Below are positions 1 through 43,800 of a DNA stretch of 64,000 nt, piece by piece. The notes beneath the pieces are model-generated. The model did no database searches. It had not been told where the DNA came from and was given only the letters and a program-made list of their open reading frames with translations. A program made the position numbers and the translations under genes. The stretch's first letter is position 1. Every line of letters starts with the position of its first letter. Origin of the DNA: an uncultured Clostridia bacterium (GTDB lineage: Bacteria > Bacillota > Clostridia > Christensenellales > Borkfalkiaceae); assembly GCA_964612545.1 (NCBI GenBank), contig CAZTBU010000007.1, positions 248 to 64,247 of the forward strand, written 5' to 3'.

Positions 1-620
1 CAGAATAATGTGACCCTTCGGCCATTCCAATCACGTCATGGTGAGCGAAGCCGAACCATCACCGCAGAATAAGGTGACCCTTCGGCTACGCTACTTCGCC
101 CTGCGGGCTCGTGCCGCCCTTAGTCTGCAAAAGAACGTGCGGGCGGGGCAGGGTGACGAAAGCGGTGACCCTTCGACTGCGCTCAGGGTGACGAGATTAG
201 AACGGCAGGGTGACGAATAGAATGCCCGCCATTCCAATTACGTCATGGTGAGCGAAGCCGAACCATCACCGCAGCATAATGTGACCCTTCGGCCGTTCTG
301 AATCCGTCATGGTGAGCGAAGCCGAACCATCACCGCAGAATAAGGTGACCCTTCGACTGCGCTACTTCGCCCTGCGGGCTCGTGCCGCCCTTAGTCTGCA
401 AAAGAACGTGCGGGCGGGGCAGGGTGACGAAAGCGGTGACCCTTCGACTGCGCTCAGGGTGACGAGATTAGAACGTCATGGTGACGGATAGAATGCCCGC
501 CATTCCAATCACGTCATGGTGACGCCGTTCTGAATCCGTCATGGTGAGCTTGCCGAACCATCACCGCAGCATAATGTGACCCTTCGGCGGGCTCAGGGTG
601 CCGAACCATCACCGCACTTC
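1..620. repeat. Mosaic array of short hairpin (REP/BIME-like) units, including a ~271-bp tandem duplication (35-305 / 306-576). The array continues beyond the 5' window edge.
   Basis: Units GTCATGGTGAGCGAAGCCGAACCATCACC at 35-63, 242-270 and 306-334 (variant at 538-565). Opposite-oriented units GGTGACCCTTCGACTGCGCTCAGGGTGAC at 164-192 and 435-463. 85-nt long-loop units at 73-157 and 344-428. Equivalent landmarks recur at a 271-bp offset (35/306, 73/344, 164/435). Confidence 0.9.
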
Positions 621-697
621 TTCACATTCGGTGGAGAAAATTCAATTCGGTTTTATGTAAAAATACATAAAATAAATAAAAAAAAGGAGAAAAGTTT

Positions 698-3600
698 ATG
701 AAAAGAAAATGGCTAATCGGACTGCTTGCTCTGCTGATGGCGATTGCAACGTGCTTCGGCATCGTTGCCTGCGGCGGCGGCGAAGAACAGGCGAGCGACG
801 AGGAAATTGCAAACAAAGCAATTACTCTTCTGAAGTCACTATACGGAGATGGCGAAACCAAGGCCTCTTATAAGGTTCTCGGCCAAACCAAAGTCGACGA
901 CAATGTATACGATGTGACGTGGACGGTATCCTCCGAGACGGAGAATATCGAAGACTACGTCAAGATCGGCACGATGGACGAATCGAAGCAGATCACGATC
1001 GACATTTCTTGGGGCGAGAACGCAATCGAGTACACGCTTACCGCGTCCGTGACGGTCGGCAGTGTCACCAAAACTTTGGACATAAAGCATACGATTCCCG
1101 CACTCGGCACCGTTTATACGCCCTCGCAGGTTCTCGAACTCGGCGCCAAACTCACTCATGCGGAAGGCTCCGAAGAAACCTATTATATGGAGAACGGCGA
1201 AGTAGCGCCTCTTACGGTAAAAGGCTATGTCGTTTATATAGATGATTCGGAGAAGGGCGGTTGGAATTCGGAATACAAGAATCTCAACAGAATCTACATC
1301 GGCGACACGAAGGACACAGCCAAAGAAGAGGCACTCTATGTTTACCGTATTGTCGGCGACGAAGTCTATCTTACCGGCCCCGATTCCATTCAGGTGGGCG
1401 ACCTCGTAACGCTCAACGGCGCGCTCGAGAAATATAAGGATACAATCGAGCTCACCTATTACGAGTCGCTCAGCGTTACCGTACTCGGTATCGAAAAGGC
1501 GGAGCGGACGGACGAAGAGATCCTCGCCGCGGCGCAGAATGCTCTCAAAGTCACTCCCTCTTACTTCAGCCAACCGGGTGAATACTCTCTGCCTGTTCCC
1601 GCAAGCGGCGTCTCTGTCACATGGGAACTCACGGGCGCTGACTCCAATGTGAAAGTCGAAAACGGCAAAATCATCGTATCCGCCATTCCCGATTCCGAAA
1701 CTTCCTATACCCTTAAGGCAACCCTTACTTACGGTAGCGCGGCGGCCGTGACGAAGGAGTTTACCATTAAACTCGGGAAACTTGCCGTGACGCATGCAGG
1801 CACGCAGGAAGATCCTTACACCCCCGCCGAGGCACGCACCATTGCGGCCACTCTTGCAGAAGGGACGTATTACTCCGACGCAAACGGCGTCAAGGCCGTC
1901 TATGTCAAGGGCAAAGTTGTAGATACAGGCTCGTGGAGCGCTGATTTTAATAACTACAATAAAGTTTATATCATTGACGAAAATTCTTACACCACGGACG
2001 CGACGCAGAATTCCGATGACGCGATCCAGATCTACCGTATCGCCAAAACCACAAAGCTCACCGAAGGTTCCCTTCATCACGGCGACACGCTTGTTGTCAA
2101 ATGCGGTATTCAGAATTATTACGGCGAGCCCGAGCTTGGCAGCCCCACGGGTGATAGTAAAGTCAATGCTGCAGATTTCGCGGATTACACTGCCACGGAA
2201 AACCCTGCTCCCGACCCCGACCCTAACCCCGACCCCGACCCTTCGGCCGACTCCGCGACGATCACATTTGACGCGAATAAGACGGGCCGCACGTCTTACT
2301 CCACTGAGGAACAGGTGTGGACGCAAAACGGAATTACTTTCACGAACGGTAAGGGGACTAACACAAACGGCGTTCAGGATTATTCCAACCCCATTCGTTG
2401 TTATAAAAATTCTACCGTCAAAATTGAATTTACTTCCGCCTTCGCAAAGCTTGTGTTCGTTAGCGCGGAGGATTACACCAGCGGTGACAATCCCTCGACG
2501 TATTGCACTTGGTTGAAAGAGAATCTCGAGGCAGTCAGTGGAGTTACCGTAACGGTGAACGGTACGGAAGTCACGGCTGTTTTGGCAACTTCCGCCACGT
2601 CATTTGAATTTACCGCTTCGCAAGGACAAGTACGTTTCTACTCGATCACCGTGTACAAAACAAACGATGGTACGGAGACGCCGGGGGAGCCCCAAACCGA
2701 CGAAGAGAAGATAAAGGCCGCACTCGACTCGTTGAACGATATGGATATTACCACAACGGGGACGACGAATCTCGAAACTTCTTACAACGACGGCGAAGTA
2801 ACCTTCTCTTGGGCAACAGATACCCAATTGTCCGGAGGAATCTTGTTTGAGAACAACGTCATCACCGTCACCGCACTTCCCGAAGCCGATGTCGCGATTG
2901 TATTCACCGTCACGGCTACCCTGGGGGGGGGCGAGACGGCAGCGGTTGAGTTGCAGTCCAATCAAAAGACGGTCACGATCACCGTGAAGTCGGCGTCCAC
3001 CGCAGAGCCCGGCGGTGACACGGCATTCACTGCCATCACCGAGCCTCAGGCAGGAACGGAATACTATATGGGCATGAAGATAGGAGATAATGCATATCAC
3101 TATGTTAATGGTACCTTCACTGATAACGGATTTTACCTGAACACGACGACGGACATTGCAACCGCGAAGAAAGCGTCCCTTACCGCGAGCGGTGACGGTT
3201 GGGTCATCATGATCGACGGAAAATATCTCGAACTTGAGGAAACGACAGGTTCGGATGGTACCGGCAACTTCGCAAATCCTAAGCTTAAAGATTCGCAGAC
3301 AGAAGGCAAAGTATGGACTTGGGATGAGCAATATAAAATCTTCACTTGGGGTGACGCGAAATGGTTCCTCGGTACGAGAAATGACCAAAAGCATGATACA
3401 ATTGGCGGATGTGCTTATAAATATGTAGCTCAGGACTACCTTGCGGTCATCGGTACGTACGCCGCAGAAAAGACGGACCCGCCTGCTCCCGGCCCCGAGG
3501 GGGGGGGCGAGACGAAAGTTAGCGGTTCGTTTACGATAACGCCGGAGCATTCGGGATTGACTTCCTCTTGGGGGCAAGGCAAATGGACGGATATAAACAG

Positions 3601-4078
3601 TGACCCGGCCGGATATACTCTTAGCGGTGTTGCATACGGTACTGCTGTTACTGCTCAGTCTCCGAGCTACATGCAGTTTAATGGCACCAAACCCGGTTCC
3701 TATTTCATGAACACTGTAGCAACCCCTGCTCCGTTAACGAAGATTGAAGTCAAATGTTCAACAAGCTCAAGTAGCGATTTGTACTTGCATTTGTTAACTT
3801 CCACAAGTGCATACCAGCCAAGTGAGAGCGGTGGGAATCCGTCGGATTCGGGGACTGTACATGAGAAGCAAAAAGTGACCGGCGAAGAAAGTACACTAAC
3901 GTGGGAAATAACAGGCGCCGATACATTTTTTGCATTATATTTTGAGGGAAAGAATGCGAAAGTTTTTTCGATAAAGATTACCTATGGAGACGCCGCGGCC
4001 GAAGCCGCAATGGAAGCGCCTGCCATGACGGCATTCACGTCAAACGCAAACGGCGGCCTATTCCGCAAGAAGGATTGA
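698..4078 (+). CDS. Large surface lipoprotein of unknown function with two OB-fold-like modules
   Basis: 1126-aa ORF with an AAAGGAGAAAAG RBS just upstream of the ATG. Lipoprotein signal MKRKWLIGLLALLMAIATCFGIVAC. Two similar modules (KGYVVYIDD...LYVYRI...VTLNGALEKYKDTIEL and KGKVVDTG...IQIYRI...VVKCGIQNYYGEPEL) resemble OB-fold domains of secreted nucleases/adhesins. PDPDPNPDPDP linker. No catalytic motif recognised. Confidence 0.85.
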   Translation: MKRKWLIGLLALLMAIATCFGIVACGGGEEQASDEEIANKAITLLKSLYGDGETKASYKVLGQTKVDDNVYDVTWTVSSETENIEDYVKIGTMDESKQITIDISWGENAIEYTLTASVTVGSVTKTLDIKHTIPALGTVYTPSQVLELGAKLTHAEGSEETYYMENGEVAPLTVKGYVVYIDDSEKGGWNSEYKNLNRIYIGDTKDTAKEEALYVYRIVGDEVYLTGPDSIQVGDLVTLNGALEKYKDTIELTYYESLSVTVLGIEKAERTDEEILAAAQNALKVTPSYFSQPGEYSLPVPASGVSVTWELTGADSNVKVENGKIIVSAIPDSETSYTLKATLTYGSAAAVTKEFTIKLGKLAVTHAGTQEDPYTPAEARTIAATLAEGTYYSDANGVKAVYVKGKVVDTGSWSADFNNYNKVYIIDENSYTTDATQNSDDAIQIYRIAKTTKLTEGSLHHGDTLVVKCGIQNYYGEPELGSPTGDSKVNAADFADYTATENPAPDPDPNPDPDPSADSATITFDANKTGRTSYSTEEQVWTQNGITFTNGKGTNTNGVQDYSNPIRCYKNSTVKIEFTSAFAKLVFVSAEDYTSGDNPSTYCTWLKENLEAVSGVTVTVNGTEVTAVLATSATSFEFTASQGQVRFYSITVYKTNDGTETPGEPQTDEEKIKAALDSLNDMDITTTGTTNLETSYNDGEVTFSWATDTQLSGGILFENNVITVTALPEADVAIVFTVTATLGGGETAAVELQSNQKTVTITVKSASTAEPGGDTAFTAITEPQAGTEYYMGMKIGDNAYHYVNGTFTDNGFYLNTTTDIATAKKASLTASGDGWVIMIDGKYLELEETTGSDGTGNFANPKLKDSQTEGKVWTWDEQYKIFTWGDAKWFLGTRNDQKHDTIGGCAYKYVAQDYLAVIGTYAAEKTDPPAPGPEGGGETKVSGSFTITPEHSGLTSSWGQGKWTDINSDPAGYTLSGVAYGTAVTAQSPSYMQFNGTKPGSYFMNTVATPAPLTKIEVKCSTSSSSDLYLHLLTSTSAYQPSESGGNPSDSGTVHEKQKVTGEESTLTWEITGADTFFALYFEGKNAKVFSIKITYGDAAAEAAMEAPAMTAFTSNANGGLFRKKD
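2923..2931 (+). repeat. G9 homopolymer tract inside the lipoprotein CDS (candidate slipped-strand site)
   Basis: ctGGGGGGGGGcgagacg encodes LGGGET. The same 16-mer GGGGGGGGGCGAGACG recurs at 3499-3514. Confidence 0.9.
3499..3507 (+). repeat. Second G9 homopolymer tract inside the same CDS
   Basis: gaGGGGGGGGGcgagacg encodes EGGGET. Identical 16-mer to 2923-2938. Confidence 0.9.
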
Positions 4079-4100
4079 CAATTGTTTCTCAGGTTCTGAA

Positions 4101-4132
4101 AAACGGCTACCCTTAACGGGGTAGCCGTTTTT
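4101..4132 (+). terminator. Rho-independent terminator of the 698-4078 gene
   Basis: Stem CGGCTACCC (4104-4112) pairs with GGGTAGCCG (4119-4127), followed by TTTTT (4128-4132). Lies 23 nt after the stop codon. Confidence 0.8.
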
Positions 4133-4140
4133 CGTTCTGA

Positions 4141-5151
4141 TCCGTCACCCTGAGCGTAGCCGAAGGGTCACCACTCGTCACCCTGAGCCTGCCGAAGGGC
4201 CACCATAAAAAAATCGTCACCCTGAGCCTGCCGAAGGGTCACCACTCGTCACCCTGAGCCTGCCGAAGGGTCACCTTATTCTGCGGTGATGGTTCGACTT
4301 CGCTCACCATGACATGATTCGGAACGGCCGAAGGGTCACCTTATTCCAATCCGTCACCCTGCCGTCCCAATCCGTCACCCTGAGCTTGCCGAAGGGTCAC
4401 CGCATTCCAATCCGTCACCCTGCCGTCCCAATCCGTCACCCTGCCCCGCCCGCGCGTTCTTTTGCAGACTAAGGGCGGCACGAGCCCGTAGGGCGAAGTA
4501 GCGTAGCCGAAGGGTCACCATAAAAAAATCGTCACCCTGAGCCTGCCGAAGGGTCACCACATTCTAATCCGTCACCCTGCCGTTCTGATCCGTCACCCTG
4601 CCCCGCCCGCACGTTCTTTCGCGGACTAAGGGCGGCACGAGCCCGTAGGGCGAAGTAGCGTAGCCGAAGGGTCACCACTCGTCACCCTGAGCCTGCCGAA
4701 GGGTCACCATAAAAAAATCGTCACCCTGAGCGTAGCCGAAGGGTCACCTTATTATTCTGCGGTGATGGTTCGACTACGCTCACCATGACGTGATTAGGAA
4801 CGGCCGAAGGGTCACCACTCGTCACCCTGCCGTCCCAATCCGTCACCCTGAGCTTGCCGAAGGGTCACCTTATTCTGCGGTGATGGTTCGACTTCGCTCA
4901 CCATGACGATTCAGAATGGCCGAAGGGTCACCGCTCGTCACCCTGAGCCCGCCGAAGGGTCACCTTATTCTGCGGTGATGGTTCGGCTTCGCTCACCATG
5001 ACGGATAACAATGTGATGGTTCGATTTCGCTCACCATGACGGATAACAATGTGATGGTTCGATTTCGCTCACCATGACGTGATTAGAATGGCGGGAAGGA
5101 CCACCATGACATAAAAAAATGTTGTCATGCTGAGCCTGTCGAAGCATCACC
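4141..5151. repeat. ~1-kb mosaic array of hairpin units, inverted relative to the array at 1-620
   Basis: By my count about 20 complete units plus half-units with almost no unique sequence. GTCACCCTGAGC(CTG/GTA/TTG/CCG)(G)CCGAAGGGTCACC at 4144-4172, 4177-4204, 4216-4243, 4248-4275, 4374-4401, 4531-4558, 4681-4708, 4720-4748, 4842-4869 and 4937-4964. (CTGC)GGTGATGGTTCGACTTCGCTCACCATGAC at 4281-4313, 4757-4789, 4875-4907, 4970-5002, 5013-5040 and 5051-5078. Long-loop units at 4435-4519 and 4592-4676. TGC/GCA variant at 5124-5151. Fixed linkers: ACTC, TTATT, ATAAAAAAATC, CATTCCAATCC. Confidence 0.92.
5111..5151 (-). terminator. Possible intrinsic terminator of the GIY-YIG gene, formed by a repeat unit plus a T7 run
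   Basis: On the minus strand the hairpin unit 5151->5124 (GGTGATGCTTCGACAGGCTCAGCATGAC) is followed by AACATTTTTTTAT. It starts 20 nt after the GIY-YIG stop. The same unit+T7 arrangement (linker ATAAAAAAATC on the + strand) recurs at 4205-4215, 4520-4530 and 4709-4719. Confidence 0.45.
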
Positions 5152-5171
5152 TTATGACAAATGAGCGAATT

Positions 5172-5447
5172 TTAATAAGGCATCAAATCTTCCCATTTAG
5201 GATTTAACGTGGCAATGAGAGCGTCTTTTTTTGAACGTCTCCAACCTTTGAGTTGCTTTTCTCTATGGATTGCGGCCTCGATATCATTCCATTCTTCACA
5301 ATACACAAGCTTATGCAATCCATATCGTTTTGAAAAACCATTAAATTCGCCGCTTCTGTGCTCAGACAAGCGGCGTTGTAAATTGTTTGTAACACCAATG
5401 TAAATCACATTGTTATTTGTATCTGTCAATATGTATACGTAGGCCAT
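5172..5447 (-). CDS. GIY-YIG nuclease family protein (UPF0213 / COG2827-like, 91 aa)
   Basis: MAYVYILTDTNNNVIYIGVTNNLQRRLSEHRSG...KLVYCEEWNDIEAAIHREKQLKGWRRSKK carries the GIY..YIG, R, E and N hallmarks of the family. I chose the internal ATG at 5447 because the 38 upstream codons of the tracked ORF (to 5561) are translated repeat units. The gene is visibly AT-rich compared with its surroundings. Confidence 0.85.
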   Translation of the reverse strand: MAYVYILTDTNNNVIYIGVTNNLQRRLSEHRSGEFNGFSKRYGLHKLVYCEEWNDIEAAIHREKQLKGWRRSKKDALIATLNPKWEDLMPY

Positions 5448-5462
5448 AGGATAATTTGAATG

Positions 5463-5797
5463 CTGCGGTGATGGTTCGACTTCGCTCACCATGACGTGAT
5501 TCGGAACGGCCGAAGGGTCACCGCATTCCAATCTCGTCACCCTGCCGTCCCAATCCGTCACCCTGAGCCCGCCGAAGGGTCACCACATTCCAATCCGTCA
5601 CCCTGCCGTCCCAATCCGTCACCCTGAGCCCGCCGAAGGGTCACCATATTCTGCGGTGATGGTTCGGCTTCGCTCACCATGACGGATAACAATGTGATGG
5701 TTCGGCTTCGCTCACCATGACGAATATTGCGGTGATGGTTCGACTTCGCTCACCATGACGGATAACAATGTGATGGTTCGACTTCGCTCACCATGAC
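5463..5797. repeat. Hairpin-unit array upstream of the GIY-YIG gene, in the same orientation as 4141-5151
   Basis: GGTGATGG-type units at 5463-5495, 5651-5683, 5694-5721, 5729-5759 and 5770-5797. GTCACCCTGAGCCCGCCGAAGGGTCACC at 5557-5584 and 5618-5645. Half-units GTCACCCTGCCGTCCCAATCC lie between them. Confidence 0.9.
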
Positions 5798-5811
5798 GAA
5801 GGAGGCGATTC

Positions 5812-6474
5812 TTATACTTTTGTGTCTCTTCTTGCCAAAATTTCGCCGCTTTCGCTGTCTAATAGAAGTGACAGCGTGTCGCCTTCGGTATCAACAATGC
5901 CGATATAGTAGTAATTTTTATCCCGCCGCAACAACCGTACGTGAAATTCTCCCAAAAACGCCCCGCCGCTTGTCATGCGCCCGATACGGTCTTTCTCCGC
6001 CTCCAAGGCAAAACCGAGCGCGTCGGTATATGAGATGGTCTTATCGTTTTTGACGGATGTTGCCGTGATTTCCCGCGTCTCTTTGTCCCACACAACGCGC
6101 AACGAGACGGTATTTTGGGGGAACGCGTTCACGCTTTCCGAGAAGAACCAGTCCCCGCAGGCGTTACGGAAGGAGACTTCTCCGCCCTGTTCGCCCGTTT
6201 CCGTCTTAAAAAACACGCTGAATGTTTCCGCCTTGACGGCAGGGACGAGGGAGATCTCCACGATGTCGCTCCGCGGGCAGGCAACGCCGTCGGCGGCGTA
6301 AGGGTGCTCGCGGGAAACGCAGGAGAGGGTGACGGAGAATTCGTCGGTTTCGGCCATGAAAATATCCGATCTCAGTTCGGAGATATGCGCGGTGTAGTCG
6401 TATTTTTTCCCGCAAGCGGAAAAGAGCAGGGGGGCGCAGAGGACAAGTAAAACCAAAGATATATGTTTTTTCAT
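5812..6474 (-). CDS. Hypothetical lipoprotein (220 aa)
   Basis: ORF with signal/lipobox MKKHISLVLLVLCAPLLFSAC. The C-terminal YYYIGIVDTEGDTLSLLLDSESGEIL is PepSY-like. No other recognisable motif. Confidence 0.7.
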   Translation of the reverse strand: MKKHISLVLLVLCAPLLFSACGKKYDYTAHISELRSDIFMAETDEFSVTLSCVSREHPYAADGVACPRSDIVEISLVPAVKAETFSVFFKTETGEQGGEVSFRNACGDWFFSESVNAFPQNTVSLRVVWDKETREITATSVKNDKTISYTDALGFALEAEKDRIGRMTSGGAFLGEFHVRLLRRDKNYYYIGIVDTEGDTLSLLLDSESGEILARRDTKV

Positions 6475-26975: not shown

Positions 26976-27784
26976 AAGATCTGTTTACGTCGCCCTTTTT
27001 AAAGGCATTCGCCAAAACCACGAGCAATATGTACCGTCTGGGCTGGGATGAGCGGAACGGGGGAAACCTCTCCCTTCTCCTTACCGAAGAAGACATCGCG
27101 CCCTATCTCGACCCGTATGCGGTAAAGCGCCGCTTCCCGCTCGGCTTCACGGCCGTAGAACTCAAGGGGAAATATTTCCTCGTGACGGGTACGCAGAAAT
27201 ATTTCAAAAACATAGAAGGGGACGAGGAAAACAATTTGGGGCTTTTCCGCATTTCGCAGGACGGCACGGAGGGTGAATTGCTTTGGGGCTATGCGGACGG
27301 CGGGAGGCCCACCAGCGAGCTCCCCGCCCACCTCATGAGCCACACCGCCCGCCTTCGGGCAGATCCCGAAAACAGGGTTGTAATGCATTCCCATCCGACG
27401 AACACGCTCGCCATGACCTATGTGCATGCGCTCGATTCCGACCTTTTCACCCATACGCTGTGGCAAATGTCTACGGAATGTATCGTTGTGTTCCCGGAGG
27501 GCGTGGAGGTACTCCCGTGGATGCTTTGCGGCACCAACGAGATCGGCGCGGCCACGGCGGAAAAGATGAACGGGGTCCGCGTGGTCGTTTGGGCCATGCA
27601 CGGAGTTTACGGCGCGGGCAAGACGCTTGACGAGACGTTCGGTCTCGTGGAAACGGTGGAAAAAGCGGCCACCGTCTATATGCTGACGTCGCATTTGCCC
27701 CGCGTCAACACAATCAAAGACAGCGAATTGAAATGCCTTGCGGACTATTTCGGCGTGAAATACCGCAAGGGGATCATTGACTGA
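26972..27784 (+). CDS. rhaD: Rhamnulose-1-phosphate aldolase (class II aldolase)
   Basis: MKDLFTSPFLKAFAKTTSNMYRLGWDERNGGNLSLLL parallels the E. coli RhaD N-terminus (..GWDERNGGNLTLRL). HSHPTN metal site. ATGA overlap with the rhaA stop. AAGGAGAG RBS. The tracked ORF start at 26882 was rejected. Confidence 0.92.
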   Translation: MKDLFTSPFLKAFAKTTSNMYRLGWDERNGGNLSLLLTEEDIAPYLDPYAVKRRFPLGFTAVELKGKYFLVTGTQKYFKNIEGDEENNLGLFRISQDGTEGELLWGYADGGRPTSELPAHLMSHTARLRADPENRVVMHSHPTNTLAMTYVHALDSDLFTHTLWQMSTECIVVFPEGVEVLPWMLCGTNEIGAATAEKMNGVRVVVWAMHGVYGAGKTLDETFGLVETVEKAATVYMLTSHLPRVNTIKDSELKCLADYFGVKYRKGIID

Positions 27785-27842
27785 CGGTTCTAACCGCGCA
27801 ACCCGCGGCAGGAATAAAAACCGAAAAAATAAGGAGGAAACC

Positions 27843-30800
27843 ATGAAACAAACAAAGACAAAAAGCGTTATGATGATACTGACGCTAGCGTTGCTCGTGC
27901 TGACGCTCGGGCTCGGCATTTTCTTCATGTATCCGAAAGAGGCGAATGCAGATGAAGCGTCCCCCGAGCTCGTCCCGCTTGCCGACGCGGATTTTTTGTC
28001 CGCACCTGCGATCCAAAAGAACGGCGGCGGAAAAGGCGTTTGGTGGGACGCTAACCATACCCAAATGCGGCTTTTTTATAAGGTCTTAAACGGAACGCCC
28101 ACAAAACTCAGCAAAGGCGGGACGAATCAATACGCCGCGGTCACCACACTTTTCATCAAAGCGGGTGACACAGAGCAGTCTATTGCTCAATGGGGTTTCC
28201 CCACGTCGAAACGCTGGATCGACAATATGGGGGCCCACACTGCCGATATCGATGCCGTTACAGGTGAAATTTGGATGTGTGGCACAGAAGAATGGCTTGA
28301 AAGTATTACCGAAGTCCATTTCGCAGCGGGTTTTGCCGAAAAGGACGACGCGGGCAACGACACGGCCGTCAAGACCACGAAAGATTATTATCTCTGGAAT
28401 GGCGACGATAGCGGCTGGCAGACCCGCATTACGTCATTTACGGCGACATACGGAGGGAAGCTCGAAAAGGGTCAACCGCTTGACCCCGCCAAACTTAACG
28501 TCACGGCGCAGTTCAAGGACGGAACAAGCGGCACGGTGGACGGCTCCGTGATTTCGGTCGGCGAGCTCGATACTTCCGAGCTTGGAGCAAAGACGGTGGC
28601 GCTTACCTATCAGGACCAGACCGCTGAGCTTTCCGTTACCGTGGAAGAAGCAAGGACGCTTACAAGTATCGAAGTGAAGAACGGATCCTATGCCGCACAG
28701 CGTTGGACCTATCCCGATTTCGCCGACCTCGAAGTCTACGCGCACTACGGAGAAGAGGATACGGAGGGTACGAAACTCGATAGGAGCGATTTCACCGTTT
28801 CGGGCTACGACATGTGGACGGCGGAAGGCACGACGGAGGGTACAGTTTCCTACACGCATAATGACGTGACGAAGACGGCAACGTTTACCATAAACGTGCA
28901 GGAGAACACCACGACGGATAAATATCTCGATGTCGTCCCCGGAAAATCCGCCAATGGACCGAACAGCCAGGCGGCGGGCGACGGCGGAACAGGTTTTACG
29001 TTTGGCGAGAGGCCGCTTCTTTCTGTTCCGATCGAAATCAAGGGTTTCGATCTCGGCTATAATCTTGGCAACCGCAACTCTTTGGGTTTTGAACTCATCA
29101 AGGGGATGCATTTCGTAGATTACATTGAATTTATCTACGACGGCGAGGAGAAAACGCTTCAGGAACTCCTCACGGACCAAATAATCGAGAGCGCAGGGAC
29201 GAGCGATAACGGCGTGCTGGTATTTTTGTTTAAAGATCAAGCGAACCGCGCAAAGGTTTCCCAAATCCATTGCAAGGCAGGTATGCAGTGGCCGAAACAA
29301 ATGAGCGACCATTGGGGGAATGTGACGCAGGATATGGCAGATCAACTGACCCAAGCGAGCGAACTCCTTTCCGATCTTGTCCTGAAAAAGGATGTCTGGC
29401 TCTACAACGGCGGGAATGAGGGATGGCTCGAGGCCGTAGAGAGCCTCACCGTTACCGTAGCAGACAATTATCAGGTTCTGCAGAATGCAGAGCTCGACAC
29501 GAGCAAACTCACCGTCACGGCAAAATACTTCGGCAAAGACGAGGGGACTTCCGTAGATATCGCGGGTTGCACCGTTGAGTTCTCCTCCGGAGAGGTCGGC
29601 GAACAAAAAGGTACCGTCACCTATCGCGGCGTCAAGGGGGAATTCACCGTCAAAGTTGTGAAGGCCGGCAAAGTTCTCGAGAAAATCGAGCTTTCGGGCA
29701 CGACCGAATTCACCGCAAAGCGTTTTGAAGAGGCTCCCGCGCTGACGGGCTTCACCGTCACCGCGTATTTCCAAGACGAAACAGACAGAGAGGACGTCAC
29801 GGCAAACTGCACCGTCGAAGAGGCGAACACATGGCAAGAACCCGGCACGTACAAGATTCAGGTCAGCTACACCTATGGCAGCGAAACGAAGACTGCCGAG
29901 CTCAGCCTTACGATCGAGGAACCCGATCTTGACAACGGGCTTGAGGTTCTGCATGACTACGAAGTGCAGTCTCCGCCTCCCATCGAGTGGAGTGACAACT
30001 TCTGGGGCCCCACGGATTGGGGCAACCACACGGCCACAAAGAATCCGCAGCTTATCATCTACTTCCGTGCGAAGGGAAACATTACTCTTCCCGAAACGGG
30101 CAAGCTCGATCAGTTCGGACTTTTGGGCGGCACGTCAAAGGGTACGCACATCCTTGACTATATTCTCATCAACGGGCAGCCCTATGAAACTTGGAAGACG
30201 GAATTCGGGTATGAGACAGGTTGGATCGGTCTCCACAGCGCAGGGCCTCAGGGCTCTCAGGACGGGAGTGTTCCCTATGCGCTCTGGCTCAATCCCGGCA
30301 AAAGCGTCAAAGACAATTCATGGAGAGAGTCCATTCAGACGATCACCATCAAAGCGGGATTCCAGTGGGCTACAAGCGAAAGCGGCGATCTTGCAGGTGC
30401 GGTTGTGAAGCAGGATATTACGCTTTGGAATGCACACGACGCGGGCTGGCAGCGCGCCGCCGATAGCATTCAGGCTAAAGTAAAAGAAGGCGGGAAGATT
30501 GAGCTCGGCACCGAGGATATCGGGTCGATGATCGAAGTCAAGGCCGTCTCCGGTTCGGAAGAATGGGAGATCTCGGGTTACACGATCGAAAATTACGACA
30601 AGGATACGGCGGGCAAGCAGACCGTTACGATCATGTATCAGGGCAAAGAGTGCACCCTTGAAATCACCGTCGGGGAAGATTCCGTGCCCGAAACGCCCGT
30701 GCCCGAGAGTTTGGCGCTTGACAAGACGAACGTCACGACGGAGAAGGGCAAACAGCCCGATCTTTCCCAAATCAAGGCTACGGTCAAGTTCACGAACGGC

Positions 30801-31211
30801 GGCGAGGATGTTACCTTTAATCTCGGCGAGCTTCCTGCCGAGGCGAAACTCTCCGACATCGACGTCTCCAAGGCGGGCGACGTGACAGTGACGCTCACCT
30901 ACACCAAGGACGGCGTTACGCTCACGGCTACATTCACCGTCACGGTCACCGAGTCCTCGCAGGGCGGGAATGAGAATCCCGGCGGAGACCAGCCCGAAGA
31001 CCCGTCCAATCCCGGCGGAGACCAGCCCGGAGACCAGCCCGGAGACCCGTCCAATCCCGGCGGAGACCAGCCCGAAGACCCGTCCGAGCCCGGCGAAGCG
31101 GATAACGGTTGCGGCAGCGTCATCGGCGGCACGGGTATTGCCCTTGCGGTCATCGCGATCCTCGGGGCGGCGGTTGCCGTGATCATTGCGGCGCGCAAGA
31201 AGAACAACTGA
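27843..31211 (+). CDS. Large secreted surface protein (1122 aa) with several bacterial Ig-like (Big_3-type) domains and a C-terminal Cys-Gly/TM/basic anchor
   Basis: AAGGAGGA RBS and ATG at 27843. Signal peptide (..EANADE). Repeated modules of the form L..S.L.VTA.F.DG....V......V...D.S..G...V.V.Y.......F.V.V. Pro/Asp-rich (GGDQPEDPSNP)n linker. Tail EADNGCGSVIGGTGIALAVIAILGAAVAVIIAARKKNN. Confidence 0.85.
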   Translation: MKQTKTKSVMMILTLALLVLTLGLGIFFMYPKEANADEASPELVPLADADFLSAPAIQKNGGGKGVWWDANHTQMRLFYKVLNGTPTKLSKGGTNQYAAVTTLFIKAGDTEQSIAQWGFPTSKRWIDNMGAHTADIDAVTGEIWMCGTEEWLESITEVHFAAGFAEKDDAGNDTAVKTTKDYYLWNGDDSGWQTRITSFTATYGGKLEKGQPLDPAKLNVTAQFKDGTSGTVDGSVISVGELDTSELGAKTVALTYQDQTAELSVTVEEARTLTSIEVKNGSYAAQRWTYPDFADLEVYAHYGEEDTEGTKLDRSDFTVSGYDMWTAEGTTEGTVSYTHNDVTKTATFTINVQENTTTDKYLDVVPGKSANGPNSQAAGDGGTGFTFGERPLLSVPIEIKGFDLGYNLGNRNSLGFELIKGMHFVDYIEFIYDGEEKTLQELLTDQIIESAGTSDNGVLVFLFKDQANRAKVSQIHCKAGMQWPKQMSDHWGNVTQDMADQLTQASELLSDLVLKKDVWLYNGGNEGWLEAVESLTVTVADNYQVLQNAELDTSKLTVTAKYFGKDEGTSVDIAGCTVEFSSGEVGEQKGTVTYRGVKGEFTVKVVKAGKVLEKIELSGTTEFTAKRFEEAPALTGFTVTAYFQDETDREDVTANCTVEEANTWQEPGTYKIQVSYTYGSETKTAELSLTIEEPDLDNGLEVLHDYEVQSPPPIEWSDNFWGPTDWGNHTATKNPQLIIYFRAKGNITLPETGKLDQFGLLGGTSKGTHILDYILINGQPYETWKTEFGYETGWIGLHSAGPQGSQDGSVPYALWLNPGKSVKDNSWRESIQTITIKAGFQWATSESGDLAGAVVKQDITLWNAHDAGWQRAADSIQAKVKEGGKIELGTEDIGSMIEVKAVSGSEEWEISGYTIENYDKDTAGKQTVTIMYQGKECTLEITVGEDSVPETPVPESLALDKTNVTTEKGKQPDLSQIKATVKFTNGGEDVTFNLGELPAEAKLSDIDVSKAGDVTVTLTYTKDGVTLTATFTVTVTESSQGGNENPGGDQPEDPSNPGGDQPGDQPGDPSNPGGDQPEDPSEPGEADNGCGSVIGGTGIALAVIAILGAAVAVIIAARKKNN
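31080..31193 (+). repeat. 114-nt C-terminal cassette, ~96% identical to 20711-20824
   Basis: See 20711-20824. The mismatches are mostly synonymous or conservative (V/I, F/I). Confidence 0.9.
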
Positions 31212-31340: not shown

Positions 31341-31435
31341 GGTGACCCTTCGGCTACGCGCTTTGCGCTTCGCTCAGGGTGACAGATCCCGTCATGCTGA
31401 GCCGCCGCACTTTTGCGGCGTGCCGAAGCATCACC
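31341..31435. repeat. Isolated pair of hairpin-repeat units with extended loops, in convergent orientation
   Basis: GGTGA-CCC-TTCGG-[ctacGCGCtttGCGCttc]-GCTCA-GGG-TGAC (31341-31383), then GTCA-TGC-TGAGC-[CGCCGCActtTTGCGGCGtg]-CCGAA-GCA-TCACC (31391-31435). Same scaffold as the arrays at 1-5797. Ends 10 nt before the RBS of the next gene. Confidence 0.85.
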
Positions 31436-37889: not shown

Positions 37890-40800
37890 ATGAAACGCAA
37901 GCTTGTGACGGTTCTCGGTCTACTGTTCTCGTTGATCGGCGCTTTTGCCATTGTTACGGCGTGCAAAGGAACCGATGAAGAAAACCCCGACGGCAACGGC
38001 GCGTTAAATCATGCCGTCGTCGACGAGTATTATTACGACGGCGACGGAACGGAATATTTGATTTCGCTGCGTACGGAAAATTATTTCACATATGTGATTG
38101 CGGGAGACCGGGCAGAGGGGAAATATACTTTGGAAAAAGGTGCGCTTACGCTGATCCCGGACGGCGGGGAGGCGGTCAGCGGCACTATCTCCGGCAATAT
38201 TCTTCATCTTACATACAGGGAGACCGCCTATAATTTTCTCCTGAAGGTAGATTATACGGTCCATTTCGAGACGATGGGGGGTTCTCCCGTTGCGGACGCA
38301 AAGGTTTTAAACGGGAAGAAGGTTGCAAGGCCCGTGGATCCCTCACAGGCGGGGAAAGTCTTTGTCGGGTGGTATACGGACGAATCTTTCCATAACGCTT
38401 ATCACTTTACGGAGCCCGTCACGGGTGAGCTTACCCTTTACGCGCGCTTTGTTGCGCCCATCGACCCCGAATTTACCGTCTCTTTCGACGCGGGCGCGGG
38501 CGCGGAAACATTCGGGCCCCGCACGACGACGGGCGGCATGCTCTTCGATCTTCCCGTGCCCGTGAAGGAGGGCGCAAAATTCGTCGGTTGGTATGTTTCC
38601 CAATCTTATTCGGCGGATGAACTTTCGTATGCCTATGACGAACAGCCCATCGAAGAGAATATCACGCTCTACGCCGTTTGGGACGACGGTTCTCCCGTCG
38701 TGTCCGTAAGCGGCAGCGGAGTAGATATCCAAACCAGCCCCGGCGACCGCTATTCCATCACCATTACCGGGCCCGACGGCAATGCGGAAGTCAACAATGG
38801 GACGGGTACTTCCCGGCACTATGATTTCGATTTTACTTCCAAGGCGGCAGGCCGCTACAAGGTAGAAGTTACGCTCAATCAAAAGACCACGACCCGTTAT
38901 TACTGCAACAAGACGCTCGCACGCGTCTCCGTGTTCAAGGTCGAGGGCTCCACTTTGTTCTTTAACGCGGTCGGGAATGCAACGAGCTACTATCTTACGG
39001 CCGTTTGCGGCACACCGGGCCATGCGCAGAAAGAAACCAGAATGTCCATCGACCCCGGGGTCCGCAGTTGGTTCTTCGGGGAATGCGAGATGCCCGAAGA
39101 CGGCTTCAAATTCACCGTAGAAGCCGAAGCGGACGGCTATATTTCCTCCACTTCGGAGACATATACTTTTGACCGCACGCTCGGCGCGGTAGAAGGGCTT
39201 ACCGTCATTGCGGAGTCCGAGACCGTGACATGGAACGCGGTCGGGAATGCGTCCTCTTATTCTGTCACAATCGAGAAGGACGGCGAGGAGGTCTATTCCG
39301 CAAACGTCGGCAGCGCGACCTCGTTCGATCTCAGATATTACGACGCGGCAAACTATACCGTCAAGGTACAGCCCAATGCGCGCGGGTGGAAATCGCCCGA
39401 ACCCACAGTCTACACATATCAGAAGACCCGCCTTGCGACGCCGAAGGCTCCCGTCTACGACGGCGGCGCCCTCTCATGGGAAGCCGTCAATGGCGCCACG
39501 GGGTATGTCGTCACGATCGACGGAAAAACGTATACGAGCAAAACGAACACGCTCTCCCTTACGGAAGTCAGTCTCGACGCCTCGGTCACGGACCATAAGA
39601 TTACCGTCCGCGCGGAGGCCGAAAACTTTGCCGCATCCCTCGAATCGGATGTGCTTACGCTCAGCTCCGCCCTCGGCGGCCTTACCTACAGTAAGGGCGT
39701 GCTTTCGTGGAACTCCGTCCTCGGCGTTACGGAATATCTCGTGACGGTTGACGGCGGTGACCCCCAACGCGTCGGTGAGGCACGCTACGACGTTACATTC
39801 TCGCATGCGGGCGAGAATAAACTCTCCGTCTCCGCGGCAAGCGGCGACTTCGCACCCATGGAAATCACGGTGTTCGTCTATACGCTTACCTATAATATGG
39901 ATAAGGCGGAGGCGGCGCCGCACGCGGTTTATTATCTCGCGGCGGGCGATCCCATTCCCCGTCCCGAAGCTCCCACGTATTACGGCTACACGTTTGACAA
40001 TTGGTACACCGCACCCGGTTCGGGCGGCGAGGAATTCAGCGACATCTATTTCGGCGGGCAGGATCTCACCGTCTACGCGGGCTGGACGGCGAATGTCCAC
40101 ACGATCACCTTCGTCGTCGGCGCCTACAGCGACCAAAACATAGAGAGCGTTCAAGTCCGTTTCGGCGAGAAGGTGGATATCAACGGAAAAGCACTTCCCG
40201 TTCCCGAATCCAACAACGCCAATCGCGTATTCTCGGGCTGGCACTTTGAGAGCGACGCGGGCATCCAAATCGCCGACTTCGAAGGCAAGTTCATCGGGGC
40301 GTTTTTGCAGGACAATGATGTAACTCTCTATGCTTCCTATGCGGAAGTGTTCGCCTTTGCAAAAGACCCCGCGTCGAAGGACGGATATACCGTGTCGAAA
40401 GGTCCCGGTATCATTCAGGGAATCGTGACCCACGCAAGGGTTCCCGAAAGGTACGGCACGGCGCCCGTCACGGGGCTTTCCGATTTCAAGAACTGCACCA
40501 AACTCGAAACGCTCGATATTCCGGATACGATCATGACCATCGTGAGCGGCACGGAAAACTCGGCATTCACGGGGTGTTCTTCCCTCTATGCGGTCAACGT
40601 CTATGCCGTCAGGCCCGATTTGGCGGTATTCAGCTCGGATGAAGGCGTTCTCATCAGAAAGGTTGAGGCTACGTCCAAGACGGAACTCTTCTTCTTCCCC
40701 GCCGCGAAGTCGGGCGAATACACGATTCCCGATGAAGTCACGGCCATTCCGTCGGGCGCATTCACCAGGACCAACGCGCTCAATAAACTCAACATCGGCA

Positions 40801-43800
40801 AAAACGTCACAGAGATCCAGACACAGGCCTTCAATACCTGCGATGGACTCACGGAGATCGTATTCCTCCCCGGCGGCCATGCCGATCTCGATATCCGCGA
40901 AGGCGCATTCTCGAATTGCAAAAAGGTTGCAGTCATTACCCTTCCCGCGCGTATCAAGGAGATCGCGGCCGATACGTTCGCGGATCTGGCGGGCCTTCTC
41001 GAATTCAAAATAGAGGACGGCGGAGCCTACTCCGTCATCGACGGGCTTATCTGCAAGGAATATAATGACGGGCAGGTAATAGGAAAAGAGATCGTAGCCG
41101 TGCCGATCGGAAGGGATTTCGGAAATTACGAACTTCCCCACGGCGTCGTCTCCGTCGGCGAAAGCGCCTTCTACGGCTCCTCCAAACTTACCGGCCTCAC
41201 CGTTCCGGGCGCAGTCGTCAATATTTCCTCCAAGGCCTTCGGGCACGTGTCCAAACTCGAGTCCATCGATTTCAGGGGCACGGAGAGCGATTTTGATCTG
41301 ACCATTGCGGATAAGGCTTTCTATGCCGGTTATGTATCATCGTCCAATGCCGATACGGGCGTGCAGGATAAACTGAAGGAACTTCATCTGCCCGCAAACC
41401 TTACCTATCTCGGGCAGTATTCCTTCGGCAGATATTCCGGACTTACCGAAGTATGGATCACGACCAAGCGCCCGCAGGGCACGGCGATCGACTTCAGGGA
41501 GGGCGCATTTTCGAGCGAGAGCGGCGATAAGTTCTATGTCACCACGGCGCATATCGGCGCGGATTGCCCCGCATTCTCCTATTCGGGCGTTTTCGGCAAC
41601 AAGCTTGCCAACGTGGATATTGATGTGAATAATCCTTACGTCCAGTCCGATGATGACGTCATTTACGATAAGGTGGGGGATAAGGAAGAAAAGCAACACA
41701 TCCTCTTCTACCCCATGGAGAAAGAGGGCGATTTTACCGTTCCCGAAACCGTCATCGAGATCGGCGCGTCCACGTTTGCGGCAAGAAACGGGCTCACCGG
41801 AATCACGATCCCCGTTTCCGTCGCAAGCATAGGCGACAGTGCGTTCTACAACTGTAAAGAACTTCAGACCGTTACGTTCACGGGGGCGGATAAGGATGAA
41901 GGCGAACCCCTCACAATCGGCGCCTTTGCCTTCAAAAATTGCACGAAACTTTCTTCGGTCACGCTTCCCGCCCGCCTCACAACGATCGGCCGTGAGGCAT
42001 TCCGCAATTGCGACGGGCTGACCGAAATCGAACTTCCCAAAAACCTGCAAACAATCGAAAAGGGAAGTGTCGGAACGGGCACGGCGCAAGTGGAAATTTT
42101 CGATGTTTTCCTGAATTGCAATAACCTGAAGTCGCTCACCGTCCATCCCGATAACCAATACTTTACAAGTATCGACAGCGTTCTGTATCAGCTCAAAGAG
42201 ATGAAAAAGAGTGAGGGCGGGGAACTCGAGCGCGTTCCCTACGAGGCGCTCTTCACCTCTCCCGGCGCGGAAGGGAAGATCACCGTGCCCGGCACCGTCC
42301 ACATCTTCGGCCGCGGCGCATTCAAGGACATCAACAAGGTGACGGAGATCGTATTCGAGGATATTGTTCCTCTCTATGACGCAACGGGCGAACCGGATAA
42401 TACCTACGACTTCCGGCCGAGAGCGCTCGACGGATACAGGACGGATGCGAATGAAGGAAACGGATACTATAACACGAGCGTCAAGACCATAAGGCTTCCC
42501 GACGGCCTCGAGACGATAGGCGATGAATTCCTCTGCGATTGGAGGGGCCTTACTTCGGTTACCATCCCGAAGACGGTGACGAGCATCCATGCCAAGGCCT
42601 TCTCCGGATGCTGGAATATCACCTCGTTCGAGTTCGAGCAGGGCGGAGTCAAACCTCTCTCCTTTGAAAACGGAGTGGTGGAATCCAACGGAGGAGGAGG
42701 TTATGTCGCTAATCAATACTACTATGTTTTCGGGCACTACTATCAGACCGACAACGCCGCAAGCAACAAGGATGATACGATGAAAATCGACAGCATCGTT
42801 CTGCCTTCCCGCACCGTGCTGATCGGCGACTATACGTTCTACCGTTCGCCCGTGAAGAGCATTACCTTCGACGGCGACCCCGCCTATCTGAACGGGGCGG
42901 ACGGCGGCGCGGAAGGGGCGAAGGGCGGGCTCCGTATCGGAAAATACGCTTTCTCCTATTGCCAAAATCTCGTGGACTTCAATCTCCCCGAAAACACCGC
43001 CGAAATCGGAGGGTCTGCTTTCGCCTATGCGGTGCTCAACAGACTCGAGCTTCCCGAATCTCTCGTGACCATCGGCGACGATGCATTCAGGTACCTGCAC
43101 CTCACGGAAGCGCAGGATACGCTTGTCATTCCCGGAAATGTGGAGACGATCGGGCAATGCGCCTTCCGCGATGAGTATGGTTACCGCTGCTTCAGGACGG
43201 TGGACCTCTCGCAGGCGTCAAAGCTTACTTCGGTCGGCGACTATGCCTTCGGGACCATGAAGGAACTCGAGACGGTCACATTCGCCGCGGCGGCGGAGGA
43301 ATCCCCCGCACTCACACTCGGAACCGGTGCGTTCTGGGAGAATCCGCGCCTTAAGTCAGTGGAGTTTCCCGCAAATATTTCCGTGATCGGGGACTATGCC
43401 TTCAAAAGCGATACCGCTTTGGAGAGCATTACCTTTGCGGCATACGGCCGGGACCTGAAAGATGAAGGAAAGACCAAGCTCAAGCAGATCGGAAGGGAAG
43501 CCTTTTCCGGCACCGCGATAGGGGAGTTTGCCTTCCCCGAGTCCACGGAGGCCGAGATCAAGCTCGGACAGAGTCTCTTTAAATTCTGCCGCGAGCTCAC
43601 CGTCGTGACGCTCTCTACGTCCGTCCACTCGATCGACAGCGTCTTTACCGGTTGCGGCAGTCTTAAAAGGATCGAGGTCGCGGAGGGCAGTAAGTATTTC
43701 TCCTCTTCCACACAAGAGGACTTCCCCGCGCTGTTCGATGCGAACGGAGAGTCCGTCCTGTTCGTGTATTCGGCGGTGGAGGGAGAATTCGAGATCGTCA

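Follow-up and report, generated by a model that had tools for sequence, protein, structure and literature searches.

The arrays of short hairpin repeats described here lie in a stretch of 64,000 nucleotides (nt) from an uncultured Clostridia bacterium (contig CAZTBU010000007.1; the whole stretch is called the window) and flank a gene for a small single-domain GIY-YIG nuclease that is homologous to SsnA of Neisseria and is termed ssn below. With a probability of about 0.8 the arrays are the cognate single-stranded DNA (ssDNA) sites of this adjacent Ssn-type nuclease, gene and arrays together forming a member of the Ssn/SRM system (SRM, Ssn-related motif). The anatomy of the repeat units, the covariation of their stems, the association of gene and repeat across relatives and the homology of the protein to SsnA were each observed directly; cleavage of the window units by the window enzyme, and a biological role for it, would follow by analogy with the characterised enzymes. 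The system is explained by a mechanism published in 2025, with the repeat class found here (GA-type) and the matching protein subgroup being new and missed by the published motif.

An earlier reading of the window made without searches (the sequence-only reading) was aware of no mechanistic description of the repeat family, but one exists in the form of the Ssn/NTS-SRM system (Chenal et al., Nat Commun 2025; PMC11893778). SsnA of N. meningitidis (NMV_0044) is a 94-amino-acid (aa) single-domain GIY-YIG protein of the CDD family cd10448, which binds the NTS hairpin repeat CGTCATTCCCGCGMAVGCGGGAATCYRG only as ssDNA, does not bind RNA and makes its cut upstream of the repeat, at a distance of a few nucleotides (PMC11893778). 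Cleavage requires three bases 5′ of the palindrome, while the most important base for binding is the C directly after it (PMC11893778). The ssnA gene has NTS repeats on its flanks and SsnA reduces transformation by NTS-bearing DNA. Binding restricted to ssDNA, cleavage on the upstream side and an influence on transformation are established for the Neisseria and Wolbachia enzymes (PMC11893778). Ssn homologues number thousands, most of them (71%) flanked by SRM (PMC11893778).

The gene at the centre of the present arrays, which the sequence-only reading had overlooked between 4141-5151 and 5463-5797, is the only GIY-YIG gene in the window.

5172..5447 (including the stop codon), minus strand: ssn homologue encoding a 91-aa single-domain GIY-YIG nuclease, assigned by Pfam search and alignment to SsnA.

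The Pfam GIY-YIG domain covers residues 1-73 of this open reading frame (ORF; E=1e-17) with no second domain, and the product is likely the cognate protein of the arrays. In a tblastn search of PLSDB (7.3 Gb) a match was obtained to a 94-aa ORF in the N. gonorrhoeae chromosome NZ_CP119140.1 (E=2e-13), lying within canonical NTS (CGTCATTCCCGCGMAVGCGGGAATCYRG) arrays on both sides and in both orientations. The PLSDB "plasmids" NZ_CP119140.1 and NZ_CP119142.1, from which the orthologue was taken, are 2.17 Mb each and are evidently N. gonorrhoeae chromosomes. With this orthologue standing in for the N. meningitidis protein, pairwise alignment gave 45% identity over 85 aa without gaps (E=1e-22); the Ssn paper sets its homology criterion at E<1e-10 and the window protein reaches 2e-13. 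The catalytic residues Y5, Y16 and E63 align with SsnA Y6, Y17 and E64, and the Y6, Y17 and E64 of the N. gonorrhoeae ORF are the residues mutated in the SsnA paper (PMC11893778). Among 17 aligned sequences both tyrosines never vary, and E63 is kept in at least 90%. The C-terminal motif of the window protein is KGWRRSKK. An exact look-up of the protein sequence returned no record. Searches of NCBIfam, PADLOC and PHROGs gave no specific family, only weak generic GIY-YIG or homing-endonuclease matches (those from NCBIfam being sub-threshold), and a sequence search of the PDB returned no Ssn structure, only the distant UPF0213 protein BH0048 of B. halodurans (1ZG2; E=4e-5).

The mosaic of hairpin units around the gene is real, with 25 exact matches in the window to the scaffold GTCANNNTGAGCN{3,8}CGAANNNTCACC, that is GTCA-NNN-TGAGC-(3-8)-CGAA-NNN-TCACC, against 0.00 in dinucleotide-preserving shuffles. 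The positions given for units by the sequence-only reading all proved correct when re-checked against the window. In total there are about 36 full units and about 14 half-units, distributed over three arrays and one intergenic pair (31341-31435), with unit types named after the 5′ stem triplet:

1..620, both strands: repeat array with four TGG units (plus), two CCC and two long CCC units (minus) and half-units, from the array parse.
4141..5151, both strands: main array with ten CCC and two long CCC units (plus), six TGG units (minus), one TGC unit (plus), eight half-units and fixed linkers, downstream of ssn.
4435..4519, plus strand: long CCC unit of 85 nt, an ordinary unit GTCACCCTG^AGCGTAGCCGAAGGGTCACC split at G^A by an insert of 56 nt.
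5124..5151, plus strand: TGC-type unit, the nearest unit to the 3′ end of ssn.
5463..5797, both strands: array upstream of ssn with five TGG units (minus), two CCC units (plus) and three half-units.
31341..31383, minus strand: dispersed CCC-type unit with an enlarged apical region, head-to-head with the unit at 31391-31435.
31391..31435, plus strand: dispersed TGC-type unit with the apical hairpin insert CGCCGCA-CTTT-TGCGGCG.

Parsing was done in blocks 1-630, 4131-5160 and 5451-5810, the half-units of block 4131-5160 being 5′ halves GTCACCCTGCCG and 3′ halves CCGAAGGGTCACC. Units are 25-29 nt long, or up to 85 nt with inserts, and further copies of the long CCC unit occur at 4592-4676, 73-157 (minus) and 344-428 (minus). 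The array at 1-620 has the vocabulary of the other two but inverted and extends past the start of the window. Within the arrays CCC and TGG units lie on opposite strands without exception, joined by a small vocabulary of linkers (ACTC, ATAAAAAAATC, TTATTCTGC, GGATAACAA and (T/A)TCCAATCC), so that the alternating orientation and fixed linkers likened earlier to bacterial interspersed mosaic elements (BIMEs) are borne out. The statement that almost every base belongs to a unit was too strong, as units and half-units make up 62-73% of array bases and linker the remainder. The unit at 31391-31435 is present as had been listed, but its partner on the minus strand at 31341-31383, a CCC type with an apical insert, had been missed; the pair has a Big_3 surface-protein gene on one side and a glycoside-hydrolase-like gene on the other. 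Close to ssn there are seven units upstream and ten downstream within 500 bp, the arrays abut the gene on both sides and the closest upstream unit (TGG) stops 20 nt ahead of the ATG.

A CRISPR, tRNA-derived or coding origin of the arrays was considered and rejected, the array ORFs consisting of repeat units; those at 38-220, 309-491, 4314-4472 and 4375-4560 are artefacts of this kind. The remark that similar pseudo-peptides appear as annotation artefacts holds as well, since database proteins ending in ..DPSLRSG are read-through into reverse-complement units, DPSLRSG* being the translation of GATCCTTCGCTTCGCTCAGGATGA, one such unit. C-terminal tails like ..KGPSLRSG or ..DPSLRSG are found on the annotated Ssn homologues P0057, P0071, P0087, P0101 and P0103 (also at locus L041, 3023-3388).

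The complementarity of the two stem triplets was borne out well past the window. A scan of public genomes, one per species of the Genome Taxonomy Database (GTDB), in which the invariant parts were fixed, both triplets left free and TCAC required, gave fully Watson-Crick triplets in 126 of the 146 scaffold matches listed (at least 119 loci), against 1/64 by chance. A census of this kind had been named by the sequence-only reading as the test that might refute it, and non-complementary pairs are not as common as complementary ones among the matches listed. These matches comprise at least six common triplet types (TCC/GGA 30, CCC/GGG 30, TGG/CCA 23, TTC/GAA 14, TGC/GCA 12 and TGT/ACA 9, plus singletons) in hosts from more than 15 phyla, including Clostridia (many of them rabbit-gut "Lapin" metagenome-assembled genomes, MAGs), Acidobacteriota, Chloroflexota, Bacteroidota, Planctomycetota, Verrucomicrobiota, Proteobacteria and Patescibacteria (candidate phyla radiation, CPR), among others. 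Covariation was scored on 59 distinct 25-nt units, extracted without demanding complementarity and modelled as a 5-bp outer and a 2-bp inner stem. Paired cells amounted to 88.6% against 73.1% in shuffles, the covariation score was 0.456 against 0.147 and was equalled by none of 500 shuffles, while shifted stem registers were at most 51% paired. The hairpins are thus under selection as had been proposed, with a stem that covaries and invariant flanks that are apparently recognised by sequence.

Two features of the unit are better described otherwise than before. What had been taken for a conserved C.C mismatch in the stem is better seen as a C directly after the palindrome together with the unpaired GTC on its 5′ side; in the Neisseria NTS those bases are required in cleavage and binding (PMC11893778). 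Related units such as ..GGATCTCGG and ..GGAATCCGC do not have the further G-C/T-A pairing that the TCACC tail could provide. The tail itself was rejected as a family feature, the scan pattern having required TCAC and loci chosen otherwise being without it. Likewise, TGAGC and CGAA are probably not loop ends and look like a structured extension with tandem G.A positions and a 2-bp mini-hairpin. The GA-type unit consists of five Watson-Crick pairs followed by conserved GA/GA positions and then a 2-bp mini-hairpin. For 254 of 261 units the segment between the GA positions fits such a mini-hairpin, its loop being GNA or YT and a single pyrimidine often bulging out. The mini-hairpin is paired as GC..GC, AC..GT, GT..AC or GG..CC, and this inner stem covaries too (GC..GC against AC..GT), its outermost pair showing G-C to A-T compensation. 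Tandem sheared G.A pairs prefer the context Y-GA-R, which the conserved T-GA-G and C-GA-A match, and we infer that the units form such pairs. A pyrimidine occupies position -1 in 94% of 244 unit contexts, and the unit reads YGTC-A NNN Y..R N′N′N′ T-C. The apex accepts inserts of up to 56-95 nt, a tolerance that fits recognition at the hairpin base.

The association of gene and repeat recurs in relatives of the window. The close homologues located are four proteins on 13 contigs (Clostridia MAG, Oscillospiraceae, Dialister and one further lineage), and at each of their loci same-scaffold units flank the gene both 5′ and 3′. In one of these loci (L120), where the protein is 76% identical to that of the window and a convergent giant surface-protein gene adjoins, the units are GTCATTCCGAGCGCAGCCGAGGAATC and GTCATGCTGAGCGAAGTCGAAGCATC, the first having both termini of NTS (GTCATTCC..GGAATC). 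Extending the set with PLSDB and IMG/VR loci gave 69 distinct homologue loci, in 39 of which GTC-hairpin-C units lie no more than 500 bp from the gene, against a background of two comparable hairpins in 57.8 kb of the window. Proteins with the motif KGW.R..KK have GA-type units at all eight of their loci (the window, four Firmicutes, Planktothrix, Spirosoma and a Chthoniobacterales MAG), on both sides in seven, whereas K.W.R.WK proteins (n=58, including Neisseria) have perfect-palindrome hairpins in 31 cases and GA-type units in none. Hairpin type therefore tracks protein motif, a split that is confounded by phylogeny and is a lead rather than proof. Viewed from the repeats, ssn lies within 8 kb at one of the at least 119 unit-bearing loci listed; ssn being rare near the sampled units, the units are dispersed and the informative test is that starting from the gene.

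On a Planktothrix agardhii plasmid (NZ_LR882964.1, 17359-20613; L134) ssn and GA-type units have an MmeI-type restriction-modification gene on one side and the DISARM gene drmA on the other, within a defence island. In Dialister the locus L126 (5640-7180) differs from L127 and L128, which have an identical Ssn, by whole-module indels of 73, ~85 and ~220 bp in longer composite repeats that contain units, and one Dialister unit has an insert of ~95 nt in its apical region. The indel breakpoints were rejected as evidence of Ssn-mediated insertion, as they are ambiguous in tandem repeats.

By analogy with Neisseria SsnA, each unit would fold into a hairpin once its DNA is single-stranded, as may occur on uptake by transformation or conjugation and during replication or repair. 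The nuclease would then bind the hairpin base, consisting of the unpaired GTC, the A-NNN-Y/R-N′N′N′-T stem and the C after it, and cut the strand that carries the hairpin, a few nucleotides to the 5′ side of GTC; with units in both orientations, sites would be present on both strands. Incoming or exposed single strands cut close to the arrays would be shortened or broken, and recombination of the genes that the arrays flank would be modulated in this way; the nuclease activity may also spread the units. The role of the system could be modulation of recombination of incoming ssDNA as in Neisseria, self-propagation like that of repetitive extragenic palindromic (REP) elements and REP-associated tyrosine transposases (RAYTs), or both.

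As in the Ssn/NTS system of Neisseria, a single GIY-YIG domain makes up a protein of about 91-94 aa; that of the window shares 45% identity with the N. gonorrhoeae orthologue and keeps the catalytic Y/Y/E, and its gene too stands between arrays of oriented hairpin repeats in both orientations. The repeats of both systems have a pyrimidine-GTC ahead of a palindrome bounded by A at its start and T at its end, with a C next to it; they are intergenic but also dispersed, lie beside surface-protein genes and come in more than one stem variant per genome (CCCGCG and CCCACG in Neisseria). The stem in contrast is of 5 bp rather than the 8 bp of NTS and is interrupted by GA/GA and the 2-bp mini-hairpin, with a predicted stability of -2 to -4 against -9 kcal/mol for NTS, and the units fall outside the published degenerate SRM motif. 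The protein has KGW.R..KK where Neisseria-type proteins have K(K/R)W.R.WK, and the host is a Clostridia-like gut anaerobe rather than a proteobacterium.

Several points weigh against the assignment to the Ssn/SRM system. The published SRM motif, HGTCWYN(0-2)YYVSBRHN(0-5)WNVSBRGN(0-2)RNCYNB, matches neither strand of the window and is likewise without sites in the loci of the close homologues. The same regular expression does match canonical NTS and the repeats beside the Photobacterium, Aeromonas, Azospirillum, Rhizobium and Sphingobium homologues. The descriptive definition of SRM, an inverted-repeat hairpin of 20-50 nt that flanks an ssn homologue, its palindrome preceded by a conserved GTC and followed directly by a C, does describe the window units. 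Nearest-neighbour DNA folding of the units is weak (-2.2 to -4.4 kcal/mol, z ~0; NTS, -9 kcal/mol, z -5.5), so that the argument for hairpin stability rests on non-canonical G.A pairs outside the model. Minimum-free-energy folding was for this reason set aside as evidence for hairpins, with z ~0 from a model that has no parameters for sheared G.A pairs. A change of stem sequence that kept the structure abolished the activity of N. meningitidis SsnA (PMC11893778), whereas CCC, TGG and TGC stems all surround the single ssn gene of the window; possibly the enzyme tolerates stem changes, some units only are substrates or paralogues are present elsewhere in the genome. The published biochemistry covers enzymes outside the KGW.R..KK subgroup, and the biological role described in the source paper is that in Neisseria (PMC11893778). 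Finally, there is no Shine-Dalgarno-like sequence ahead of the window ssn ATG (..CATTCAAATTATCCT-ATG; window 5448-5470 inspected), which makes expression of this copy uncertain, while the 76%-identical homologue in L120 has AAAGGAGAACCCT-ATG.

An alternative that overlaps with the assignment to Ssn/SRM, differing from it only in primary role, is that the units are selfish mobile elements like REP and BIMEs, with the GIY-YIG protein being mainly a mobilising nuclease, a functional analogue of RAYT or IS200-IS605 TnpA, and the arrays being insertion hot-spots rather than sites that serve the host. The repeat-gene-repeat layout resembles that of an insertion sequence, a likeness that the Ssn authors themselves draw to insertion sequences and REP-RAYT (PMC11893778). 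The units are dispersed, as seen in the scarcity of ssn within 8 kb among the loci listed and in the distant pair at 31341-31435, and are nested in one another, both in the long CCC units with their insert at G^A and in the Dialister unit with its apical insert. Strains with identical Ssn show whole-module indels in the flanks, and different unit types stand beside the 76%-identical L120 protein. Such hints of mobility are suggestive only. GIY-YIG domains are without known strand-transfer or ligation activity, none having been demonstrated for SsnA, target-site duplications and pairs of empty and filled sites were not identified in the loci compared, and indels in tandem repeats with ambiguous breakpoints are explained equally well by recombination or replication slippage. 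Propagation as the primary role is judged rather unlikely.

It is improbable that the units instead act as RNA, as terminators, stabilisers of mRNA or sources of small RNAs, with the GIY-YIG gene being incidental. Enterobacterial REP elements can stabilise upstream mRNA, and the units are all intergenic and downstream of convergent genes. The features that bear on termination at the main array are as follows:

698..4078, plus strand: lipoprotein gene of 1126 aa with a signal peptide and lipobox ..IVAC, bracketed by inverted arrays; context, outside the repeat system.
4115..4129, plus strand: terminator-like stem-loop with a T-rich tail after it, serving the lipoprotein gene and lying just ahead of the array at 4141.

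The lipoprotein gene thus has its own terminator-like hairpin and T tract ending at 4129, before the array begins, and so the array is not needed for its termination. The unit hairpins are weak and have no U tracts, both orientations occur inside one array, and there was no Rfam match (at gathering thresholds over the whole window, and at E<=1 over 1-6000). N. meningitidis SsnA does not bind RNA (PMC11893778), and an RNA role would leave the recurrent cross-phylum link to ssn homologues unexplained.

That the arrays are artefacts of short-read metagenome assembly, in the form of collapsed, expanded or chimeric repeats, is very improbable, for although contigs of close homologues break inside arrays (L121 and L122 end in a repeat run) and the window itself starts inside one, the L120 arrays are 100% identical over 1445 and 689 bp in three independent assemblies, the layout recurs in finished N. 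gonorrhoeae, Planktothrix, Spirosoma, Rhizobium and Azospirillum records, and the irregular, non-periodic grammar of the arrays is a rare product of collapse.

Other known systems resemble the arrays in part. The REP/BIME-RAYT systems of enterobacteria and pseudomonads have in common with them short imperfect palindromes in alternating orientation with fixed linkers, and repeats that flank the gene of a protein recognising the hairpin as ssDNA (here by analogy with SsnA), but the protein is an HUH Y1 transposase (IS200/IS605-like) rather than a GIY-YIG nuclease and the repeat sequences are unrelated. No RAYT-like ORF is found beside the arrays, the rest of the window not having been scanned exhaustively for one. 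The RS modules of Neisseria intergenic mosaic elements (NIMEs) are 50-150 bp long. NIMEs, made of dRS3 and RS repeats, are like the present arrays mosaics of short hairpins with few recurring spacer modules, clustered by surface-protein genes, but of another unit sequence class, the linkers here being 4-14 nt. The core of dRS3 is the palindrome of NTS (PMC11893778). Proteins of the UPF0213/YhbQ type such as B. halodurans BH0048 (1ZG2) belong to the same small GIY-YIG fold family but are far more distant from the window protein than SsnA is, and a UPF0213-like fusion protein of 296 aa in Subdoligranulum (L143) has no flanking units. A literature search with the unit sequences returned unrelated primers only.

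Among the genes around the arrays, the ORFs at 698-4078 and 5812-6474 have no Pfam match. Two G9 tracts at 2923-2931 and 3499-3507, the only G runs of 8 or more in the window, both lie in frame in the lipoprotein gene (..LGGGET.. and ..EGGGET..), each followed by CGAGACG. They may be due either to slipped-strand phase variation or to homopolymer error; G9 tracts are absent from the neighbouring gene in L120, which is weakly related. Away from ssn, units adjoin very large surface-protein genes at both places where they occur, namely the lipoprotein gene at 698-4078 and the gene for a Big_3 protein with a C-terminal anchor at 27777-31211. This adjacency echoes the NTS clusters that occur around membrane-protein genes in Neisseria (PMC11893778), although two cases are anecdotal. 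The window also encodes a 3160-aa BspA-type leucine-rich repeat (LRR) protein (37890-47372) and a 1704-aa Listeria-Bacteroides-repeat protein (58424-63538), with a dip in GC content to 0.44 at 37-38 kb just ahead of the LRR gene. The closest DNA among the loci compared is that of L110, a Clostridia MAG from rabbit gut, with 74-78% identity over 31.4-35.9 kb.

Taken with the split between protein motifs, the unit structure raises a more specific and tentative possibility, that GA-type units and KGW.R..KK proteins constitute a distinct, multi-phylum branch of Ssn missed by the SRM motif. The nuclease of this branch would read a non-canonical hairpin (5 bp, tandem sheared G.A and a GNA mini-hairpin) chiefly through its invariant parts, so that any triplet in the outer stem would be tolerated. 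Were this true, it would account for several stem variants being present side by side and spreading within a single genome, possibly via Ssn-dependent copy-insertion into existing units, and the C-terminal KGW..KK helix would act as a determinant of specificity, giving ssDNA nucleases with new and partly programmable recognition.

For annotation, GA-type units create spurious ORFs and C-terminal extensions such as ..DPSLRSG. The three stem variants round one ssn gene contradict the simple expectation from N. meningitidis SsnA, for which stem sequence mattered, and the pairing of KGW..KK with GA-type units and of K.W..WK with perfect palindromes offers a concrete hypothesis on specificity residues that bears on the proposal to employ Ssn enzymes as tools for ssDNA. 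Since the SRM motif is blind to the GA-type scaffold, the published SRM counts, and the figure of 71% of homologues flanked, are probably underestimates. A very widespread scaffold, GTCA-NNN-YGA..YGAR-N′N′N′-TC, which among the matches listed extends across more than 15 phyla from Patescibacteria to Clostridia, is now linked to Ssn.

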